Virus record (IMG/VR): IMGVR_UViG_3300006052_000019
Span: 1 to 36,228 of that record
DNA: 36,228 nt
Strand: one strand, 5' to 3'
Source: a virus
Lineage: Duplodnaviria > Caudoviricetes
Part shown: piece by piece, positions 2,493-18,458 of the stretch
Layout of the letters: each line of letters starts with the position of its first letter
Numbering within the stretch: position 1 is the first letter of the stretch
Notes under the pieces: generated by a model
Databases searched by the model: none
What the model saw: the letters and a program-made list of their open reading frames with translations, nothing else
Told to the model about the DNA's origin: nothing
Program-made: the position numbers and the translations under genes

Positions 2493-2755
2493 GCAAACCT
2501 CGACGGAATGCGCAGAGCAACTTTGGCGTTCATTTGCTCGGTTGTGAATGGATGCTCGTAGTCCTTAAGCGCGGCATCACTAAACAACCGCGCCTCCCAC
2601 ATGGCGCTCAGAGCTTTAGAAGTGTAGAACGGATAGATAGATGGCCGCCTCAGATTCCACTCGCCGATCCACTTCATCGCCTTCTCGCGCTCGTACCTGA
2701 TGTGCCGCTTGGCACTGCGAGCCATGCGTTCAATCTGATCGTTGATCTTTTCCAT
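2489..2755 (-). CDS. hypothetical protein (start MEKIND)
   Basis: TGATG overlap with the upstream stop at 2755; stop overlaps the next start. Confidence 0.6.
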   Translation of the reverse strand: MEKINDQIERMARSAKRHIRYEREKAMKWIGEWNLRRPSIYPFYTSKALSAMWEARLFSDAALKDYEHPFTTEQMNAKVALRIPSRFA

Positions 2756-3141
2756 CAGAAAAACTCCGGCTTTGTCACAGCACGCACGGCTGCCATGACC
2801 CCCTGCTGCATTTGGGTACGCGCGATAGCCAGCCAGTGCGGATCGGCCCCATTGCCCCCCAGCATCTTGAGCAGAAAATCGCACGCCACCCCGTGCTGGC
2901 GGATCATTGACACCAGACCGCTCTCTTCCTGAGACAGGACCCTATAACCCGGTGTCATGCTGGGCTTTTCCTCGACCGTGGCCGGATTTTTTTGAACCGG
3001 ATCGGCGTACGGTTTGATGGGCCAGACAACATCACCATTAAAGTCAATAGATCCTTTGCCACCACAGTCCAAGCAAAACCGGTCCACGTTGAAACTATGC
3101 AGGTCCGGCTGGTCCAAATACCTTTTGTGTTCGCAGGTCAT
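2755..3141 (-). CDS. acb2: Acb2 / T4 Vs.4-like anti-CBASS cyclic-nucleotide sponge with N-terminal Cys/His extension
   Basis: The C-terminal 67 aa (GYRVLSQEE...DPHWLAIARTQMQQGVMAAVRAVTKPEFF) match the remembered Acb2 pattern GYRxLSQEE...[27 protein letters not shown]. Confidence 0.8.
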   Translation of the reverse strand: MTCEHKRYLDQPDLHSFNVDRFCLDCGGKGSIDFNGDVVWPIKPYADPVQKNPATVEEKPSMTPGYRVLSQEESGLVSMIRQHGVACDFLLKMLGGNGADPHWLAIARTQMQQGVMAAVRAVTKPEFF

Positions 3142-9131: not shown

Positions 9132-12100
9132 TCAATACTGGGATCGTTCCTGCACAGACTGCAAGTGAGACCTCTCAGCCTCAGTTGCGCCTCTCCAGAA
9201 TTTCTTTTGCTGTGACTTGCTAAGGCCAACTGTATTGGCTGCCCGGTACATCATCTGGCGCTCCTTGCCGTAGATGTTGTTCTCGTCCATGAGCTTTTCG
9301 GCCTTCTCGGTGTCGCCCTGCTTGATCGCTTTGATGATGTCTGGCCTTGCCTCTTGCACGTCCATCTGGTGGCTCGTTTGATCGGAGTGCATGGCGCCCA
9401 TCGCTTCGCCGCCTGGGTAGCCCTTGCTCGTCGTGACGGTAAGGGGAGGCGGGATCAGCGGACCGGCAATCGTCGAGGCGTCGAGAGTCTTGCCGTTGCC
9501 GGTGAGCATGTTATGCAAGGCCTCTATCTCTCGCATTGGCAGCTGCGCCTGTATGAAGTGCTTGGCGATCTTGGCGCCGGCGGTTGCCAGGTCGTCGTCT
9601 GGCCGATAGATCCGGCGGCCGAAGTTGTCTTGATTGGCGAACGCTTCCGTTACCGGCTTGGCCAGGGTTGACATCTTGTTCTTGAGCATGGTTCCTGGCT
9701 TGGTCAACCATCCCTCCATCTCCTCGCCGATCTTCCCGAACGGCGTGCGGCCGTAGACAGCGGTGCCGTCCTCGTCGTGGCCCATCAGGAAGCGGTCGCG
9801 CTTGCCTTCCTCGTTCTCGCCCTGGGGCAGGAACGACTTGATCGTGTCGGGCCAGCTGAGCGGGTTCAGGACCGTATGGATCGGATGGTCGAACACCTGT
9901 TGCGTGCTTTCGTGCAAGAGGTTGGTGTACTTTTCCCACTGATCCCCAAGCCCCTGGGTGTCGTACCAGGCGCGGTCCTTGTCTTTGTTGTCGCGTATTG
10001 CGCCGATGCCAACCTGCAGCATGGCGTTGAGGCCATACATGAGTGCTATATCAACCGCGACACCGGCGCGCGCCTTGTGGGCCGCGAACGAGATCGCCTT
10101 GCCCGCCTCCTCCTGATTAAGCTCCTGGCGCAGCTGGGACTTGATGTCGCGCGGCAGGCCAGAGATTGCGTCCTTCATCGCACCAAGGTTCCCCAGGGTG
10201 AACGACCTGGAGAACATCATCACGTTGGCAACCTTGCGCCCCATGGCCGATATCGACTCTGGCGGCAGCGCGCCTGCGTACCGGTTGGCAATGTGCGCAG
10301 CCACCAGGGCAGAGGCCCGATCGCTGTGACCATCCTTCATCATGCGGTTGTAGATCTCGTTGGCGATGCCGGCTTGGAGCTCTGCCACCCGGTCCCACAA
10401 CAAGGTGCCGTGGACAAAGTCTCCGGCTCGGTCGATGCCGCCCTTGATAGCTTCGCCGGCGCCTTTGTTCACCAGGCCTACCGCGCCCCCAATACCCTTG
10501 GCCAGAAGTCCGCGACCCTTCTCGAGGTCCGGCTCTCGGCCGATCGAAGTGATGTCCTCGTACATGCCCTGGCGCCCGATCGGGACATAGCCGGCACGGA
10601 TGAACTTTTGCATCTTTTCCGGATCCTGAAGCATCGCGCGCCCGCTCTTCCAGAAGCCGGTGCCAGGCAGCATCTTCAAGCCCATGACCGGAAACGCGCG
10701 GCCGACCTCCACGCCCAGGTGAATGAACGGGCTCCACATGATCGCGGTGGTTGCGCCGTTCTTCATGGCCAGCAGCGCCTTGTAGATCTTGCCCGACGGC
10801 TGCGTGAGCACGGCCTTGAGCGGTCCCTCGAACTCCTTGGGAATCATCCGCTGCCTGACCGTCCAGTTCAGCTTTCCCTTCTCGTCCTCCTCGGCCCGAT
10901 AGCTCTTGAGGGCCGGGTGATCGAACGTGACGAACTCGCGCGGATCCATGGCCAGGTCCTGCGAGAGCTCCTGAATCCGGTTGACGAGCTCGCGCCCGGC
11001 GATCGCTTTCTCCAGGCGGGCCATGGCGATCGGCATCGTGCGGATGTCCTTGATGAAGCCGGCGCCGGTGCCGAATTTTGCCTTGAGCGCCTCCTCAGCC
11101 TCGGCCGTTGTGAGGTGCTTGCGGCCTGTCAGGTTGCTTGACTTGGTCGTCAGGCCGCCAGGGCCCGTGCCGCGGTTGCCAAACTCCGTGAGGTGTCCGA
11201 CCTCGCCGTCTTCACCGATCAAGGCGGCCACGCGGGGGACCCAGTAGTCGACGCCGCTGCCCTCGTACATGCCGGCGGCCTTGGCGCGCTGCATGAGCGC
11301 CTCGCCGTGCGCAGTCAGGAAGTTCATGACGTCCTGCTGATCCTTCGGGAGAGATGCCAGGCCCTTGGTGGGATCCTCAGCGGCGCCGGTGCGGCGCATG
11401 TCGTTCTCTTCGTCGCCAGCTTCCCACATCCGCTTGAGTTGCTCGGGCGTGAAATCCTTGGTCAGGATCTCGTGGAACCGCTGATAGTTCCAGGACGCTT
11501 CGCGCATGTGGTTGGCAAAGTCCTTGACCATCGCCATGGACCGTTCGGACCCGCGGACCATGGGTGATACTTTCGACAGGTAGTCCTGGACGATGCCCTC
11601 GCTCCAGTCGCGCACCTGCTTGCCGACATTAGATTCCCAGAGGCGCTTGAAGATGCCTGGCTTTTTGGCTAGCTCCGGCGCCTGCTGCTGCCCAGGGATC
11701 GAGTACAGGATGCTCGGATTGTTTTTATCGAACGCGCCACTGTTGCCTATTGCAGACTTGATCTGTGACTTATCGAACACTTTGTATTCGGTACCACCTG
11801 CTGTCTCGCCATTGCCCCCATGGATTGCTCCATCAAATCCAGCGTCCTTTAATTTTTTGACAAAGTCCTTGTCGTCAAGCAAATGATAGGCATCCATGTA
11901 GAGCTTGTTGATCTCGCCAGGATTTCGCTTAACCATGTCAGCGACAGAATCGTATTTGCCGGAGAAGTTCTCTTGCCAGTTGTCGGTCCCCTGGATGATG
12001 TCGGCATGCTCAAGAGCAACACGCTTGGCTTCTTCTGGGCCAAGAGTCTTTGCTATGTGCGATATATCAACAAATGGATCGCCTGTCTTATCGTTGATCC

Positions 12101-15100
12101 ATGGCTTTTCGATCCTAAGGTAAGCGGGTATGACACGCGAATGCTCTGCCGTACCGTCTAACTTCAGGTCGTTCGGCGTTTGCGCATAAGCGTTGGCTGC
12201 TTCCTTGTCACCGAATGATATGGAACCCCTGCGAGACTGGATCTCCTGATCCGTCTCGCCATGCTCGCCACGGTATACGCGAATCGGGTTGCCTTCATCA
12301 TCCTTGGCCTTGCTATCTCCGAACCAATTTTTGAATTCATCGGTATCGGGAGCCTTGAGGCTGTAAGAAATGCGGCCGTCTTCCGGGTCCCAGGTGCCTT
12401 TGTTACCTGTCGCGGATTTCAATTGCTTGGGGTCGAACACCGCGAGAGTTTCATCGCTGGCGTTATGCTCTCTCTCGTAAAATCCGTCGTGATTCCCACG
12501 AATATATTTTTGCGCTTCCGGCCGTTCAATCGTTTGCCAATCGCCCATGCTCAAACGATCACGCAAAGACGATTTCATTTGTTGACCATCATCGTCCCGG
12601 TAAGGCGGCAACTTGTCTATGCCAGGATCGTTTTTTTCAAGATGTCTTGCTAGAGCTTCAACGTGTTGTTTGTTATTTGGATCCCATGGATTTTCCGCTC
12701 GCACATACAGCTTGTGGACGTTGAGGCCCTCAGGGTTTTTGCCGTACTTAAACTCCGACACTCCAATCGCATCGTGCGGATTCGCGGCCGTAAAAATTGC
12801 TCCAGCAACTCCGTCTCTTTCTACGCCTGGACGAAATGACTCGATATCATTGGCAGTTGTAGCGTGATACATGGGCCGAGGCTCACGACGCTTCATCGCT
12901 TCATTTTTTGCGGCGTGGAAAGAATCGTATTCATCCTGCATCCGCTGAATAAACGAATCAAACGCTTTCTTGCCGTAATACTTTTCCGCAAAACTGCGTC
13001 CGTATTCGTCGTCCGAAGAGGAGGCTTTTGCATATCGCTCGTCGTTGATTTTGCGTTCGGCTTCAACGTCTGGTTTTTTGGGAGGCACAACGCTTTCAAA
13101 TCTACGGCCACCATGAACGACGCTGTTCCCAAACCATCGCTTAAAAGCTGGCGTATCGGTTTGCTTTTCTTCTTCCTTTAGTCTGGCTGCGTTCCCCAGT
13201 TCTTCAGGTTCGCTGGCACCATGCTCGACAGTTCCGGGTCTTTGCTCTCGTCCTGGTCGTTGCCCATCGCCAGATAATTCTCCGGCGTAAGAGGAATCCC
13301 GTTTTCCCGCATGTATTTCTGAACCGTATCCTCGCCACTCCGGTTCGCGGACGCCGCCTGAGAGGGCTCTGAGTTGTTCGCGGGCCTGATCTGGGCTGAT
13401 CTTCCCCGCGCTTGCTTCATTCCAGATCCTGTCCGCTTCACTTTTCATCCCCTTCTTTGATGCGGCCTCATACATGCCGCGCACAGCTTCCCAAGAAATT
13501 GACTGCATCTCTCTGGGCAACAACTGTCGCTCAACGGCCGCTCGACGATACGCCTCTTGAACTAGCGGGTAAACACCGCGGATACCGGTAGCAGCAGATC
13601 GTGCTGGTCCTGGTTCCCCAGGTTGTCCGCTACCAAACAAGTGCGCCACCTCAAGATCGGATTGCCCAAGCGGGCGCAACAAGGCTGCTGCCATTGCGTG
13701 CGTATCTGCCGTCAGGAATCCGTGCGGCGAGTTGGGGTCGACAATGTTGTGGTAGAAATTTCTGACCTTGTGCATCTCGCCTAGTTGCGCGCTGATGTTT
13801 GATCGCGATCCGTCGTGGAATATGGATATGGCCTTGGCCATTGGCTTTAATCCGGCGCCCCACGCGGTGACGGCCTCTTCGCCACCCTTGGGGGTCTTTG
13901 CAAAGTCGGCGAAGCCGCCTTCCGGAGTAACAAGACGGAAGCGCCGATCGTTGTGCTCCTCATCGAACGACTTGATCCACATGGCTTGGCCAAGGTCATT
14001 GCCTTCGAGTTCACGAAGCGTCTTCCCTTTGACCGAATCGTAGAGCGATTGGTTGAACGCCCTTCCCTTTGGGTTCGTGCTGCGCTCGACAAAAGCGCGA
14101 GCGTTAGCGTCCATCTCCGGAGTCCACGGCCGGTCCATGTGTTTTTTGAGGGCTGTCGCAATACGCTCCATCTGAGACACGTTTACGTCCCAACGCGTCT
14201 TTGGTGAGAGCGCGGCAAGCATGCCGGCAGACTGTCGCGTGGTGATATCGAACCGCTTGGCGAATCTGTTGGAGATATTGTTGGCGCCGTCGTACCATTT
14301 TTTGGCGCGGCCGCGTATTTGATCCGAGAACTGATCGTGCAACCACAGGAGATTGTCCTTCATGTGGTTGATCATTTGCTCGGCCTTGGACATCGGCGTG
14401 CCATCAAGACCCTTAAAGTTCGAGTATTTGCTCATTACGCCGACGTTTTGCTCGACCTTGTCCGGCTCGGTTTGGTGTGTCTCCCAATCCGACAACAATG
14501 GTTTTTCTTGTTCGTGCGCCACCGTTTTGAGACGGCCCTTGTAAAGCGCCGTCGGGTTGCGCGCTCCCACCCAGTCTGGTCCTTCGTCCGAACCCATCCG
14601 CGCAGCGTTGCCCATGGGCTGCACGGCCTTCATGGATCCGTTGGCCGCCGATCGCAGCGCCGAACGAGTCAGGCCTCGCAGGACGCCGGCGTCCACCTTG
14701 CCGATCCCGAAATTCTTGTAGAGGAAAGCTTTGGCGCCATCCATCATCTTTCCGATAGGACCGCGGTCGTAGCCTGTTTCCACCAGGTGGGCTGCCACCT
14801 CGCGCATGAAAGCCTGGCCACCCTCTGCCATCATCAGCTGGCCAGACTTCTCGTGCCCGGCCGGGAAGGTGTAATTTTTCTTGACCGTGTCCCACACCTT
14901 CTTGATCTCTGGGTCGGTCTGCGCACGATCCTTGAGGTCCTTAAGCAGCTGAGCGTACTTGTCAAAACCAAGCATGCGCGACAGGCCGTAATGCTCACCG
15001 ACCTCGTGCATCATGAGCGACGGCGATGTATGCGGATCAGCGCGATCAGTGTAGATTTCGACGTGGGCCGGCTCGCCGTTCCTGGCTGCTATGTACATAG

Positions 15101-18100
15101 CCTGGGCGCGCGGGTCGAGCTTGTCGCCCAACGCGCTTTGGTCTGAAGGAATAATCCGAACGATGCCCCGGTCTTGGAGCTTCTTGGCGGTGCCGTCGCC
15201 AAAAACTCGGTCGATCTCGTCCTCGTGAGCACCGACACGCTGCCGCTCTTCTACCGGTGCCAGGAGTTGATCTACTTTTTCCCGGCTTTTCTTGGGACTG
15301 GTTTGCCCTTTGCCGGCCTTGTCACTGGCAGGCTTACTTGCTACTATTGGTTCGGAAGGAGAAGCAATGAACGGTGCCGAAGTACTCGCCTCTGTCCCGC
15401 CCGGTTCGGTCTTCTTCGACGTCGACGGCGTCCCGGCCGTCCGGTTCCCGGATGGCTCCTGCTGGAATTTCTGGGGCGGCTCCAAGGACCCATTCCCGCC
15501 GGCGCGCGTGAGCTCTTTCGGCGACAAGGTGCCACCAGCCGAGTTCGCCGCCCTGGTCGACTCGTCCGTCAAACGCTGATTCTCGGCGTCTTTGGCGGCC
15601 CCGTACAGGTCGGACTGGGCCGCTGTCAGTTCCTTGATGCGGTCGCCGTCCTTCTTTGGATCAAGGTCCCGTCTCAGCTCGTACAGATGGTGGCCAATGT
15701 CCTTGGATGCGATCGTCTCTGGCGTATGGATCTGGACCTCGGCGATATGTCCGTCGGGCATTTGCACGTTTATCAGGACATCGCGGTAACCCTCTTCCGT
15801 TGGCTTCGCAAAACGGTCTTTGAGTTTAACCACCGCGTCCTTGCCAAACGCCGCCTTGATGGCCTCTATGGCCTTGGGAACTTCGGCAGATGAATGAATC
15901 ACGATGGAACCGCGCAAGAGGTCTTTGAGACCCGTCTCGTCGCCCTTGTAGTCGGACCAGAGCTTCTGAATGGTCCGGCCTTCTTCCTTTATCTTGGCAA
16001 TGACGGCGTCGCCACCCACAGCCGAGGCGGCGGCGCGCAGCTTGTCCGAATAGTCAGCCAGGTTGCGCTTGGCGCTTTCGATCATTGGCGCAATCCTCTT
16101 GCGCCCTTCGACAAACTGCTCCGGCGTAGGCTTGGGACCTTCAGGCTTGGGCTGTTCCAGGAACTTGCGGACCCGGTCCATGATCGGCTTGGGGATGATC
16201 CTGTCAAGCGATACCCCGGTGAAGTGGGTGTTGGCGTCCTTGGCTGGCGCGCCTTCCTCGCCTTCAATCCGCACGGGCAACTTCTTCCAGCCAAACTCGC
16301 GCGCGGTCGTGACCGTGCCGTTGCCGTCGACCACGTCGAACTTGCCATCCGCGCGCCGGCGCACGGTGATCGGGTCGCGACGAGGCACCGCGCCGCGCGC
16401 TGCCGCCTCCATGCGCTTTGGCGCGTTCTCCAGGCCCTGCTTGTTTTCGGATTCAGTCTTGGTCGACAAGAGGTCGTCCAGGCTTACCGTGTGCGTGTCC
16501 GGCGTCAGGTTGAAGTAGGCCCCGTGGTCCTCGGGCAGTTCGGTCGGGCGCTCCTTTTTGTCGACCACCCGCTTGAGGTATTCCTTGGTGGTCTCGCCCT
16601 CGCGCTGCGGCTCGTACTCGTCTACAGGTCTTCCTTGGTCGGCTCCGGCCGCTCCGCCGCGGTCAGACCCGGATTGCTGAACCTCTGGTCCGGCTTGAGG
16701 ATGCTCGCCGCCGTCGGTGGTGCCACCGCCTTGTTGATCCCGTACGGCGTCCCTCCCTGCTTCCACGGGCTGGGTTTCTTCAGCTGCTCGACGTACTGCT
16801 GGTTCTTGAACCTCGCCAGCTGGTCGTGACTCATCGCTTGCGCCGCCTGCACCAGGCTCGCGCTGCCGATCGGTTGCGGTATCGGGTTCATTGATTTTCC
16901 TTATCTCTGCCATGAATCCGGGACCGTGCTCCGGATGCTGCTCTGCAGCAGCCTGGACTGCGTCAGGATCTTTGTGCAGCGCCTCGCGCACCTCGGTCAG
17001 GTCTAGCCCGTGTTCCGGGCCCAGGCCGTGCAGTTCTAGGCTGGTACGGTCGCGCGCTTCCTCTATGAGATCTTTGCTGGTCTTGCCTTTTTGCTCGGTT
17101 GCCGCGCCGGAATTTGGGACAGAGGATGGCGGCTCTACCTCTCCAGTCGGAGAGGACTCCGGCGCGGCAGACTGTGCTGCGCGATCGCGCAGGTTTTTCC
17201 ATTCGTTTCGTTCGGCGTCGGTGAGAAATTGCGCATGCTCCCCAACCTCAACCGTGGCGTCTTTACGGCCAGCTTCCCGTGCCTGCTGGTCAGCGATGGT
17301 AATCCGGGTGCCCTCGGCCTTGCGGGTGAGATCAGCCAGGCGGGACTGCTCCTGATCCGAAAGCGCACCCTTCCCAGGGCCCGTAGGAGCCCCAGGTTCG
17401 ATTCCAATGCCGCCGGGCTCCGGAGCTACTGCCCGGAGTTTCTCGACGGTTGTGACCCCTTCTGGAGCCTCCTGGCGGCCTTCCAGCGTTTGCGGGGCCG
17501 GCGTCGGCGTCTGTCCGTTTAGGAGTTCCTGGATCTGACGGGCTTGATCTTCCGGGGTAGCCCGGCCGCCCACTATGCTGGCCGCCTTGTGCGCCGCGCC
17601 AAAAGCGGCGGTCTGGACCACGCCGCCAATGACAGCATCTTGGATCTGTTGCGGCAGCGTTTTGGCCCACTGCTCAAAGGTCATGTCCGGATTGGCCACA
17701 GCCGCATCGATGGCCGATGACACAACCGAGGAGGCCGCACCAAGGCCACTGTTGACGGCCGCGTCAGCGACAAACTTGCGCAAACTATTGGCCCCACCCA
17801 GGCGTTCGATAAACCTTCCTACCGGGATAGCGCCAGCGGCGGCATTGACGGCGCCTACCCCAATGCCCGCACCCAAAGCTTCAGCCCGGCTGCCGCCACG
17901 CGCCGATACGTTGGCCACTTCTTCGCCACCAGCTTGCAAGCCAAAAGCCGCCGCCGCCGGTATGACGCTGCCCGTAATAACGCTGGCGGCCACCGCCGGA
18001 GCCGACACCGCGACGCCGGCGGCTGCATCAAAAGCTTTCTCGCCGATCCCGTGACCCATCTCAGGATGAGTAACTTCCGCCTCTAGCTGGGCCTGCTTTA

Positions 18101-18458
18101 CTTCGCGTATACCGCGCTGGACCATGTCTTCGTTGCCAACCAAGTTTCCGACCGCCGCATGGATACCGCCGGCCAGGGAACCAGACTTGGTCAATGTCCC
18201 GTAGGTGCGCTTAAACGATTCGTAGATGTAACCAAGGTCAGCGCCGATCCCGCCCTCTGGCCGTGGCGCATCTTCCTGGTCACGCGCCACGCCGGTAACC
18301 CCGCTGGGCGGGATAACAGCATCTGGCTCCGGCTGCGGCTTGAGCCAGTCCTGGGATACCGGGTGTCCGTTGGCCTGCAACTTGGCGAACAGGTCCGCCT
18401 TGGACATGCCATCGGGCACGCCTTGAACCGTAGTACCGTCTGGCAGTTGAACGTCCAT
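9132..18458 (-). CDS. 3108-aa large polyvalent / internal virion (ejection) protein
   Basis: Last of the internal-virion genes. ParB-like about 16260-16500 (PITV...VVDGN), RelA/SpoT-like about 15590-16100 (KDLLRG, GYRD, EVQIHT), zincin HEVGEH 14991-15008, DUF7178-like about 13440-14350 (WY, AALSP, KVRNF, TADTH), two ART-like domains about 11700-13160 (FK.WFG.S...YH/YR...VF...Q.KSA.GN), LPD38-like C-terminus. Confidence 0.85.
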   Translation of the reverse strand: MDVQLPDGTTVQGVPDGMSKADLFAKLQANGHPVSQDWLKPQPEPDAVIPPSGVTGVARDQEDAPRPEGGIGADLGYIYESFKRTYGTLTKSGSLAGGIHAAVGNLVGNEDMVQRGIREVKQAQLEAEVTHPEMGHGIGEKAFDAAAGVAVSAPAVAASVITGSVIPAAAAFGLQAGGEEVANVSARGGSRAEALGAGIGVGAVNAAAGAIPVGRFIERLGGANSLRKFVADAAVNSGLGAASSVVSSAIDAAVANPDMTFEQWAKTLPQQIQDAVIGGVVQTAAFGAAHKAASIVGGRATPEDQARQIQELLNGQTPTPAPQTLEGRQEAPEGVTTVEKLRAVAPEPGGIGIEPGAPTGPGKGALSDQEQSRLADLTRKAEGTRITIADQQAREAGRKDATVEVGEHAQFLTDAERNEWKNLRDRAAQSAAPESSPTGEVEPPSSVPNSGAATEQKGKTSKDLIEEARDRTSLELHGLGPEHGLDLTEVREALHKDPDAVQAAAEQHPEHGPGFMAEIRKINEPDTATDRQREPGAGGASDESRPAGEVQEPAVRRAAEETQPVEAGRDAVRDQQGGGTTDGGEHPQAGPEVQQSGSDRGGAAGADQGRPVDEYEPQREGETTKEYLKRVVDKKERPTELPEDHGAYFNLTPDTHTVSLDDLLSTKTESENKQGLENAPKRMEAAARGAVPRRDPITVRRRADGKFDVVDGNGTVTTAREFGWKKLPVRIEGEEGAPAKDANTHFTGVSLDRIIPKPIMDRVRKFLEQPKPEGPKPTPEQFVEGRKRIAPMIESAKRNLADYSDKLRAAASAVGGDAVIAKIKEEGRTIQKLWSDYKGDETGLKDLLRGSIVIHSSAEVPKAIEAIKAAFGKDAVVKLKDRFAKPTEEGYRDVLINVQMPDGHIAEVQIHTPETIASKDIGHHLYELRRDLDPKKDGDRIKELTAAQSDLYGAAKDAENQRLTDESTRAANSAGGTLSPKELTRAGGNGSLEPPQKFQQEPSGNRTAGTPSTSKKTEPGGTEASTSAPFIASPSEPIVASKPASDKAGKGQTSPKKSREKVDQLLAPVEERQRVGAHEDEIDRVFGDGTAKKLQDRGIVRIIPSDQSALGDKLDPRAQAMYIAARNGEPAHVEIYTDRADPHTSPSLMMHEVGEHYGLSRMLGFDKYAQLLKDLKDRAQTDPEIKKVWDTVKKNYTFPAGHEKSGQLMMAEGGQAFMREVAAHLVETGYDRGPIGKMMDGAKAFLYKNFGIGKVDAGVLRGLTRSALRSAANGSMKAVQPMGNAARMGSDEGPDWVGARNPTALYKGRLKTVAHEQEKPLLSDWETHQTEPDKVEQNVGVMSKYSNFKGLDGTPMSKAEQMINHMKDNLLWLHDQFSDQIRGRAKKWYDGANNISNRFAKRFDITTRQSAGMLAALSPKTRWDVNVSQMERIATALKKHMDRPWTPEMDANARAFVERSTNPKGRAFNQSLYDSVKGKTLRELEGNDLGQAMWIKSFDEEHNDRRFRLVTPEGGFADFAKTPKGGEEAVTAWGAGLKPMAKAISIFHDGSRSNISAQLGEMHKVRNFYHNIVDPNSPHGFLTADTHAMAAALLRPLGQSDLEVAHLFGSGQPGEPGPARSAATGIRGVYPLVQEAYRRAAVERQLLPREMQSISWEAVRGMYEAASKKGMKSEADRIWNEASAGKISPDQAREQLRALSGGVREPEWRGYGSEIHAGKRDSSYAGELSGDGQRPGREQRPGTVEHGASEPEELGNAARLKEEEKQTDTPAFKRWFGNSVVHGGRRFESVVPPKKPDVEAERKINDERYAKASSSDDEYGRSFAEKYYGKKAFDSFIQRMQDEYDSFHAAKNEAMKRREPRPMYHATTANDIESFRPGVERDGVAGAIFTAANPHDAIGVSEFKYGKNPEGLNVHKLYVRAENPWDPNNKQHVEALARHLEKNDPGIDKLPPYRDDDGQQMKSSLRDRLSMGDWQTIERPEAQKYIRGNHDGFYEREHNASDETLAVFDPKQLKSATGNKGTWDPEDGRISYSLKAPDTDEFKNWFGDSKAKDDEGNPIRVYRGEHGETDQEIQSRRGSISFGDKEAANAYAQTPNDLKLDGTAEHSRVIPAYLRIEKPWINDKTGDPFVDISHIAKTLGPEEAKRVALEHADIIQGTDNWQENFSGKYDSVADMVKRNPGEINKLYMDAYHLLDDKDFVKKLKDAGFDGAIHGGNGETAGGTEYKVFDKSQIKSAIGNSGAFDKNNPSILYSIPGQQQAPELAKKPGIFKRLWESNVGKQVRDWSEGIVQDYLSKVSPMVRGSERSMAMVKDFANHMREASWNYQRFHEILTKDFTPEQLKRMWEAGDEENDMRRTGAAEDPTKGLASLPKDQQDVMNFLTAHGEALMQRAKAAGMYEGSGVDYWVPRVAALIGEDGEVGHLTEFGNRGTGPGGLTTKSSNLTGRKHLTTAEAEEALKAKFGTGAGFIKDIRTMPIAMARLEKAIAGRELVNRIQELSQDLAMDPREFVTFDHPALKSYRAEEDEKGKLNWTVRQRMIPKEFEGPLKAVLTQPSGKIYKALLAMKNGATTAIMWSPFIHLGVEVGRAFPVMGLKMLPGTGFWKSGRAMLQDPEKMQKFIRAGYVPIGRQGMYEDITSIGREPDLEKGRGLLAKGIGGAVGLVNKGAGEAIKGGIDRAGDFVHGTLLWDRVAELQAGIANEIYNRMMKDGHSDRASALVAAHIANRYAGALPPESISAMGRKVANVMMFSRSFTLGNLGAMKDAISGLPRDIKSQLRQELNQEEAGKAISFAAHKARAGVAVDIALMYGLNAMLQVGIGAIRDNKDKDRAWYDTQGLGDQWEKYTNLLHESTQQVFDHPIHTVLNPLSWPDTIKSFLPQGENEEGKRDRFLMGHDEDGTAVYGRTPFGKIGEEMEGWLTKPGTMLKNKMSTLAKPVTEAFANQDNFGRRIYRPDDDLATAGAKIAKHFIQAQLPMREIEALHNMLTGNGKTLDASTIAGPLIPPPLTVTTSKGYPGGEAMGAMHSDQTSHQMDVQEARPDIIKAIKQGDTEKAEKLMDENNIYGKERQMMYRAANTVGLSKSQQKKFWRGATEAERSHLQSVQERSQY
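13178..13441 (-). CDS. nested +1-frame small protein within the polyvalent gene
   Basis: GAAGGGG SD before GTG 13441 (alternative ATG 13420 with AGGA). Protein-like core DTVQKYMRENGIPLTPENYLAM...DPELSSMVPANL; the main frame here is a low-complexity linker. Confidence 0.6.
   Translation of the reverse strand: MKRTGSGMKQARGRSAQIRPANNSEPSQAASANRSGEDTVQKYMRENGIPLTPENYLAMGNDQDESKDPELSSMVPANLKNWGTQPD
15319..15361 (+). promoter_or_regulatory. antisense sigma70 promoter and RBS inside the polyvalent gene
   Basis: TTGTCA (15319-24), N17, TACTAT (15342-47) with extended -10 TG (15339-40); AAGGAG at 15356-61; ATG 15367. Confidence 0.75.
15367..15579 (+). CDS. nested antisense 70-aa protein, candidate antidote to the RelA/SpoT-like domain
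   Basis: Own promoter and SD. Globular-looking MNGAEVLASVPPGSVFFDVDGVPAVRFPDGSCWNFWGGSKDPFPPARVSSFGDKVPPAEFAALVDSSVKR. Lies in the Ser/Thr/Gly/Pro linker that begins where the RelA/SpoT-like domain ends. Confidence 0.72.
   Translation: MNGAEVLASVPPGSVFFDVDGVPAVRFPDGSCWNFWGGSKDPFPPARVSSFGDKVPPAEFAALVDSSVKR
16622..16891 (-). CDS. nested +1-frame 89-aa ORF within the polyvalent gene
   Basis: TAAGGA-AAATCA-ATG; the ORF coincides with an R/G/E/Q/D-rich linker of the main frame just before ParB. Confidence 0.5.
   Translation of the reverse strand: MNPIPQPIGSASLVQAAQAMSHDQLARFKNQQYVEQLKKPSPWKQGGTPYGINKAVAPPTAASILKPDQRFSNPGLTAAERPEPTKEDL

Follow-up and report, generated by a model that had tools for sequence, protein, structure and literature searches.

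A predicted Tis1-like immunity gene nested antisense in a phage polyvalent protein gene, beside its putative target, a Tas1-like alarmone synthetase domain

Toxic alarmone synthetases and the small immunity proteins that neutralize them represent a known chemistry, which is found in type VI secretion systems (T6SS) and in MuF modules of phages, and in those portions of the literature that describe these modules the immunity gene follows the toxin gene (PMC12226406, PMC10083569 and PMC5576092, each in part). Two of these inhibitors, Tis1 and IapK, act by occluding the acceptor site of the enzyme, according to the relevant passages of PMC11782079 and PMC12226406. Here we describe a different arrangement in a stretch of phage DNA of 36,228 nucleotides (positions 1 to 36,228 of IMG/VR virus record IMGVR_UViG_3300006052_000019, Caudoviricetes), the whole of which is called the window below. 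A gene for 70 amino acids (aa) lies on the plus strand, fully inside the minus-strand gene of a 3108-aa protein, and ends at the C-terminus of a Tas1-like synthetase domain of that protein (table 1). We consider it probable that the two form a toxin–antidote pair, i.e. that the gene encoding the toxin also harbours, nested on its opposite strand, a Tis1-like immunity gene whose product blocks the adjacent synthetase domain.

A sequence-only reading of the window had proposed a complete expression unit on the opposite strand of the large gene, and every element of this unit, from the promoter with its TG through the Shine–Dalgarno (SD) sequence and the ATG to the 70 codons and the TGA, is indeed present inside the intact 3108-aa open reading frame (ORF). 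The promoter-like site has nine of 12 box matches plus the TG; 12 kb contain five promoter-like sites, as against 3.0 +/- 2.0 in shuffles. Both frames share their third codon positions, and open stretches of at least 70 codons make up 39% of this antisense frame. When the main protein was recoded synonymously, the antisense frame stayed open in 49% of cases, and ATG, SD sequence, -10 box and open frame were kept together in 3.7%. Within the window alone the antisense unit is only modestly beyond chance, and it is conservation in other loci that takes the signal past chance. No other hidden gene of similar quality was found in the large ORF, where nine antisense starts with an SD sequence were screened for a -10 box; among these, a -10-like box occurs only at 15367, at its out-of-frame neighbour 15374 and at 11653. 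The ORF at the last of these sites (11653-11886, plus strand, 77 aa), which has a weak SD sequence and a -10-like hexamer and lies just past the second ART-like region of the large protein, looks like a shadow frame.

Table 1. Coordinates, in the window, of the nested gene, its signals, the synthetase domain and the carrier gene.
Feature	Coordinates	Strand	Details
Antisense gene nested in the polyvalent gene; product of 70 aa, predicted to be a Tis1-like immunity protein	15367-15579	+	ATG 15367, TGA 15577-15579
Sigma70-type promoter-like site, extended -10 TG	15319-15347	+	TTGTCA 15319-15324, N17, TG 15339-15340, TACTAT 15342-15347
Shine–Dalgarno AAGGAG	15356-15361	+	5 nt before ATG 15367
Main-frame linker reading through antisense gene and promoter	15330-15527	-	predicted disordered, model residues 202-267 with pLDDT < 50
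Tas1-like small alarmone synthetase domain	15537-16130	-	aa 777 to about 974 of the 3108-aa protein
Polyvalent protein gene	9132-18458	-	intact ORF 18458-9132, 3108 aa, between structural and lysis genes

A search with the region returned 23 other large proteins, most of which aligned across the supposed linker, and at six of 11 viral loci the enzyme C-terminus is also the place where an antisense ORF ends, its frame relative to the main one being the same; a second alignment scan found the same 11 loci again. A profile of these six and the window, run on a sample of 40 metagenome and genome loci (21 of them enzyme-bearing), added four loci at E <= 5e-8 and two weak ones that were accepted by eye. 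The resulting first-round set comprises 13 loci including the window; locus L025, whose sequence equals that of the window, went uncounted and serves only as the window's tip in the tree. In this set, with starts picked by eye, a GGAG-type SD sequence and a -10-like hexamer are each present in 13/13, as compared with 2.3% and 17.6%, respectively, of other antisense ATGs (n=682). Several relatives show little conservation of the -35 box. In 9/13 loci the antisense stop codon is provided by a Tyr codon that lies in the last helix of the enzyme or just after this helix.

Three further scans yielded at least 155 loci, at least 148 with the enzyme and at least 74 distinct. Among the 74 distinct new loci listed, 42 match the antisense profile with at least 7 bits at the expected place, where the best score elsewhere was 5.0 bits; this threshold was chosen after the list had been seen, and some of the new loci are close kin of training loci. 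A rule fixed in a script found a start with SD sequence in 30, and also a -10 box in 27, of the 37 testable loci among those listed, and the same rule applied to 592 control anchors gave 2.7% and 0.3%. The other 32 of the 74 have a small downstream sense gene (14), a fused sense domain (two) or a convergent antisense ORF (seven), all assigned by eye, or else show nothing clear (three) or offer too little DNA (six). A partner, be it sense, fused, convergent or nested, is thereby kept in 65/74 listed loci (42 by profile and 23 by eye). The earlier suggestion that domain and antidote travel as one cassette is borne out insofar as the antisense ORF stands at the same enzyme C-terminus in the 13 first-round loci and in those 42. 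At the protein level, a shadow of the hidden gene of at least 20 bits follows 61/110 internal enzyme domains, and the signature is found in 44/59 internal domains of proteins of at least 1500 aa, in both cases with training loci included.

Left out of these counts were 19 of the 40 pattern loci and seven of the 155 later loci, all without the enzyme, as well as 74 near-duplicates, L053 with its interrupted enzyme and ten enzyme loci that are fragmentary or do not look like phage. By eye, the L053 enzyme is broken before its last helix, from about position 481, by unrelated sequence resembling an insertion element. L015, L029, L038 and L047, apparently non-phage, have the same enzyme domain, of the GYRD type, and behind it either ankyrin-like repeats or a linker near WD-like repeats (again by eye).

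Which of the two frames is under selection was assessed by a third-base test, in which the class (purine or pyrimidine) of the third base common to both frames was followed in 40 fully nested genes (pairs are not independent). In the overlap, this class is kept in 799/881 cases (0.91) where only the antisense frame depends on it, in 0.73 where only the main frame does and in 413/747 (0.55) where neither does. In the enzyme region, which served as a control, it is kept in 0.92 where only the main frame depends on it, as against 0.58 where only the antisense frame does and 0.57 where neither does. Thus, the antisense frame in the overlap is constrained like an ordinary gene and the main frame less so, a clear reversal with respect to the enzyme region, and selection on the antisense frame, as proposed from the sequence of the window, is supported. 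The apparent protein-level conservation of the linker is a shadow of the antisense gene. The description of the main frame as a featureless linker holds for model residues 202-267 but fails over the last ~14 antisense codons, where the last helix of the enzyme is predicted. The antisense ORF is almost certainly a real gene.

What this gene encodes is best approached through its relatives. Single-sequence searches with the 70-aa protein found no match in the protein collection, in GenBank phages, in Pfam or in PHROGs, and scanning viral contigs with this single protein brought up no relative; what the ESM Atlas returned was limited to clusters without a name at 0.82-0.83, which are at most a lead. 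As a family, however, the antisense proteins align end to end with domains that are encoded in sense, adjoining the enzyme or fused to it (probability 94.5, E 7.7e-8, 58 columns), and a comparison with 44 rows gave E 1.2e-7. One protein matched at E 5e-6 among 52, the best reversed control reaching 0.19. A second sense family (A7), located beside GxN-type enzymes, is Tis1-like, with E 0.007 to 6ox6_B and a Pfam Tis1_ImmP match in 4/12. As to structure, the model of the 70-aa protein (built from seven sequences) has a pLDDT (predicted local distance difference test score) of 82; in a wide VIA structure search Tis1 (6ox6_B) ranked first of 48,161 chains, with a modest Z of 4.4 (next row 3.8) and a root-mean-square deviation of 3.8 over 58 aligned residues, and Foldseek with the 70-aa protein gave nothing at E <= 0.001. 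This top match comes from the same PDB entry as the best match of the enzyme (6ox6_A). The 70-aa protein likely works like Tis1, though it is not filed as a member of Pfam Tis1. Another PDB match, the designed propeller Scone-E, is a repeat artefact.

A relationship to the pZFD/ATfaRel2 antitoxins was considered and dropped: these carry a YXXY motif (PMC11782079, in the part on pZFD antitoxins), the 70-aa protein has no Tyr at all, Tis1 ranks first and no pZFD/ATfaRel2 structure is among the 50 rows listed for the small protein. The original pairing is thereby sharpened, the evidence supporting the Tas1/Tis1 (Apk/IapK) type and not the FaRel2/pZFD type. That gene callers miss the gene is true only in part: a collection of 15 billion proteins contains the large protein and lacks the 70-aa protein, but 27 related proteins have been called elsewhere, unnamed or as 'hypothetical'.

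Within the enzyme domain, residues 777-963 match Pfam RelA_SpoT (E 1e-6, 29.4 bits against a cut-off of 27), and both this match above cut-off and Foldseek assign the SYNTH fold. Its best solved relative is Tas1, by sequence (6ox6_A, E 2.4e-9) and by fold (Foldseek E 2.6e-9), followed by SaEAS as the second fold match and then by RelP/RelQ. The model has a pLDDT of 93-98 per block up to model residue 190, with a helix reaching residue 198; in the numbering of the whole protein, confidence extends to about residue 974, and the 66 residues behind it are disordered. K824, R828, K832, D846, Y891, E907 and H923, which in domain numbering are K48, R52, K56, D70, Y115, E131 and H147, are all kept, and these seven are invariant in enzyme alignment A1; we take them to be the basic residues, the catalytic Asp and Glu, the acceptor-stacking Tyr and a His.

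Co-folding of the enzyme with the 70-aa protein, a check that the sequence-only reading had suggested, gave a median of 0.87 (runs 0.87, 0.38 and 0.90) as against 0.02 for the best control, a result that may show likeness to the already solved Tas1–Tis1 complex (6OX6) and not binding. The mark used for a complex is reached by 116/157 solved and 2/215 mismatched pairs; agreement between the runs is at least 0% of contacts, and the partner has a pLDDT of at least 59. The predicted interface on the enzyme comprises residues 60-70, 102-115 (with the conserved Y115) and 146-172, i.e. the acceptor-site side. The residues K48, R52, K56, D70, E131, K143 and H147 are kept in 61/61 domains with the hidden-gene signature. 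At three polyvalent loci (L003, L005 and L006), whose records are incomplete, no partner was found, and the enzyme carries the exchanges K56R and K143R; these enzymes are possibly weakened or inactive copies. The 70-aa protein very probably inhibits the neighbouring enzyme domain. Its earlier designation as antidote of an adjacent toxSAS-like domain is supported on the sequence side by conservation, by the third-base test and by the homologous partners encoded in sense, and on the structure side by the match to Tis1 and the predicted complex.

Several observations weigh against this interpretation. On the side of the enzyme, syn3 is DxL where Tas1 has GxN, and GxN at this position is the signature of (p)ppApp synthetases and hence of Apk enzymes (PMC12226406, in its part on syn3), which tempers the assignment of (p)ppApp as the product. 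On the side of the small protein, the Z of 4.4 for Tis1 lies within 1 of unrelated rows, Pfam Tis1_ImmP matches 0/13 antisense members at E <= 1, and neither profiles A2, A4 and A8 nor profile A6 reached a Tis1 row in the PDB. The antisense family is linked to the Tis1-like sense family A7 with only E 0.009 (probability 4.5, 57 columns), and for A6, the family that serves as a bridge, the connection to A7 is itself only weak (E 0.003). One of the three complex runs puts the partner elsewhere, and 13/23 internal domains without signature or fused partner keep all 14 residues checked (in proteins only). In the third-base test, the main-only class in the overlap is still kept in 275/379 cases, pointing to some main-frame constraint. 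Finally, one RNA run (share 0.07) gave a single 159-nt contig over 15531-15689 among eight placed; as such contigs carry no strand, start or level, it counts as no evidence.

The partner gene occurs in several layouts. In the sense-neighbour layout, found at L020, L040 and in Bordetella phage PHB04, the partner gene lies in sense beside the enzyme gene; in PHB04 the pair (gp034/gp033) is followed by an HD hydrolase gene. The PHB04 trio (L001, 5092-7357), consisting of a portal-adjacent RelA/SpoT protein, a 69-aa gene and the HD hydrolase, is annotated as hypothetical and forms an Apk2/IapK/Aph1-like triad without a MuF match; a pairwise BLAST of the 70-aa protein against gp033 was not significant. 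In the fused layout, enzyme and partner share a single reading frame, as at L010 (3001-3759), L054 and L056 and in proteins such as P0124, P0084 and P0152 (about 26 proteins). These fusions are single chains as in CapRel, with a different type of inhibitor, and some may be two genes with in-frame starts. The convergent layout shows little overlap (L066, L097 and L118; by eye also L140 and L167), and the nested layout has a short main-frame tail in 11 loci and a long or open one in 28. Carriers include portal-like, MuF-like and other virion-protein-like sequences (by eye). In the tree, convergent and nested forms are mixed within one clade (support 0.96; midpoint root, many weak nodes), which fits the hypothesis that the nested layout arose by read-through of a convergent immunity gene.

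Taken together, these data suggest the following scenario. The large protein would be made late and ejected with the DNA, as its gene position and Iyer et al. (PMC5512222) suggest. Its enzyme domain would pyrophosphorylate nucleotides, with (p)ppApp as the most likely product and ATP being drained. As an enzyme in mid-protein allows no immunity gene behind it in the late operon, this gene would sit antisense beneath the read-through linker, with a host sigma70 promoter that provides the antidote once the DNA enters the cell, ahead of late synthesis of new toxin. The small protein is predicted to bind the acceptor-nucleotide side of the enzyme and so to block synthesis, and enzyme, linker and hidden gene may travel between virion proteins as one cassette of ~800 bp. 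Going further, one might tentatively imagine a dead-man's switch that is widespread among phages, an extension that seems rather unlikely to hold in full: the virion would inject an active ATP-consuming synthetase whose sole antidote gene lies on the opposite strand of the toxin gene under a host promoter, and a cell would be left with the toxin alone if it silenced the phage DNA on arrival or destroyed it. In this extension, read-through of the convergent immunity gene would have turned a C-terminal toxin into a self-contained cassette that fits anywhere in a polyvalent protein, and other linkers beside toxic domains of such proteins may hide antidotes as well.

The alternative that survives best, in our opinion with a small chance of being correct, accepts both the gene and the binding and sees in the enzyme a mild synthetase of (p)ppGpp or mixed alarmones that tunes the host, with the small protein as a regulator or timer. 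This would go along with the DxL motif, with SaEAS as the second structural match, which makes both alarmones (PMC12691689, in part), with the alarmone-like response that Iyer et al. propose in their passages on polyvalent RelA/SpoT domains (PMC5512222) and with the fact that no HD hydrolase was found in the 53%-complete record; yet the closest relative by sequence and by fold is the toxin Tas1, Tis1-type partners are tied to (pp)pApp producers (PMC11782079, in the relevant part), and a partner in some form is kept in most of the listed loci. Much less probable is an action at the RNA level, in which the antisense transcript would run over the enzyme region and silence or destabilize the toxin message in a type I-like manner, the peptide being secondary. 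No terminator-like site is listed on the plus strand between the antisense stop and the enzyme region, so a transcript may span the latter; protein-level selection on the antisense frame, the conserved SD sequence, the predicted complex and the sense-encoded and fused homologues, which need no antisense RNA, speak against it. That the ORF merely mirrors a conserved low-complexity linker and is no gene can practically be dismissed: open antisense stretches are common here and the amino acids of the two frames are tightly coupled, but antisense-only third bases are kept at 0.91 versus 0.58 in the control, SD sequence and -10 box recur far above control, and homologues exist in sense and, at L097, L118 and L066, antisense where the main ORF has already stopped. 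Just as improbable is a real gene that moves with the enzyme but whose product binds elsewhere, to a protein of the host or to some other domain of the large protein. In its favour, the sequence link to Tis1 is weak and the co-fold may stem from likeness to Tas1–Tis1; against it, the position at the enzyme C-terminus is invariant across different carriers and no second copy was found in the record.

We thus favour the toxin–antidote reading, and its setting deserves a closer look. The window, a fragment of phage DNA, has its genes for head, tail and lysis on the minus strand. Upstream of the gene for the 3108-aa protein lie those for the major head protein and virion structural proteins, downstream those for a GH108 lysozyme and an Rz-like spanin. 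With Pfam matches to ART-PolyVal (two stretches), DUF7178 and RelA_SpoT, weak ones to LPD38 and ParB_N, and a metallopeptidase-like HEVGEH motif, the protein belongs to the polyvalent type, i.e. very large phage proteins with several conflict domains of the polyvalent set. It is likely an internal, ejected virion protein, to judge from the place of its gene in the structural module. The weak ParB_N match (16230-16529, minus strand, E 0.04) stands immediately ahead of the enzyme domain; a similar-looking segment immediately follows the enzyme domain of L005 and L006 (by eye). Upstream of both domains, another sense frame within the large gene holds an ATG ORF of 89 aa (16622-16891, minus strand), for which no GGAG/GAGG SD sequence and no match in the fetched loci or PHROGs was found. 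Elsewhere in the window, an ORF of 128 aa (2755-3141, minus strand) with an Acb2/Tad1 hairpin domain (E 1.7e-12) likely encodes a nucleotide-sponge anti-defence protein.

If our reading is correct, the locus shows that viruses of prokaryotes naturally and recurrently encode one protein antisense and entirely within the gene for another, and the nested gene has homologues that stand free as well as a function, directed against what its host gene encodes, that can be predicted. It would account for the presence of a toxic enzyme midway along a giant virion protein, a position that leaves no room for the customary immunity gene downstream, and would supply the inhibitor needed for cloning and assaying such domains, making the role of alarmone synthetases in phage virion proteins testable. 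The frequency of the signature in internal domains of very large proteins implies that annotation misses a gene family, and conserved low-complexity 'linkers' may be usable as pointers to hidden genes.

Among known systems, the closest is Tas1 (Apk1)/Tis1 of Pseudomonas aeruginosa (PDB 6OX6), which provides the best sequence and fold match of the enzyme and the best fold match of the small protein, and which resembles the present pair also in partner size (70 aa here, 76-77 aa there) and in the predicted binding to the acceptor side. Tas1, however, forms the C-terminus of a T6SS effector that carries PAAR, and its immunity gene is a separate one that is co-expressed (PMC10083569, in part), whereas here the domain is internal in a phage protein of 3108 aa, has DxL, and its partner is antisense in the same gene with a promoter-like site of its own. 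No Pfam match to PAAR (Apk1) or MuF (Apk2) was found in the large protein. As to precedents for the layout itself, olg1 and olg2 of P. aeruginosa are antisense ORFs embedded in annotated genes that are reportedly under purifying selection and are said to be evolutionarily novel (PMC8850804). The partner of olg1 is presumably tle3. What sets the present nested gene apart from these is that some of its homologues are free-standing and that its predicted function is directed against the product of the very gene in which it lies.

The Apk2/IapK (BcTis1)/Aph1 MuF modules of temperate phages likewise combine a virion-associated alarmone synthetase with an adjoining small inhibitor (PMC10083569 and PMC12226406, in the parts on these modules), and sense-downstream genes of this type in the loci analysed match Tis1 (E 0.007; Tis1_ImmP in 4/12). 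In contrast, the present locus has no MuF domain, the toxin is not C-terminal, the immunity gene is not downstream in an operon and the incomplete record shows no HD hydrolase. Like the genes of Tis1 and IapK, the 70-aa gene is encoded directly beside the synthetase, but antisense and nested instead of downstream in sense. FaRel/AT2faRel, FaRel2/ATfaRel2 and CapRel are similar in that a toxSAS is neutralized by a small structured protein, with fused forms also in the present family, and differ in layout and inhibitor, the latter here being nested antisense, without YXXY and without a pZFD/ATfaRel2 structure among its 50 rows listed. Large multi-domain phage proteins with ART-PolyVal, HEVGEH and RelA/SpoT were described as polyvalent proteins by Iyer et al. 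(2017, PMC5512222, in part); the word 'antisense' occurs zero times in the main text of that paper, and its passages covering the RelA/SpoT domain propose no immunity partner for it. Nor was an antisense or nested immunity gene for such synthetases found in the literature searched, which covers few subscription papers. Thus, the chemistry of Apk1/Tis1 and Apk2/IapK and the presence of RelA/SpoT domains in polyvalent proteins were already known, and what is apparently new is the nested antisense layout.

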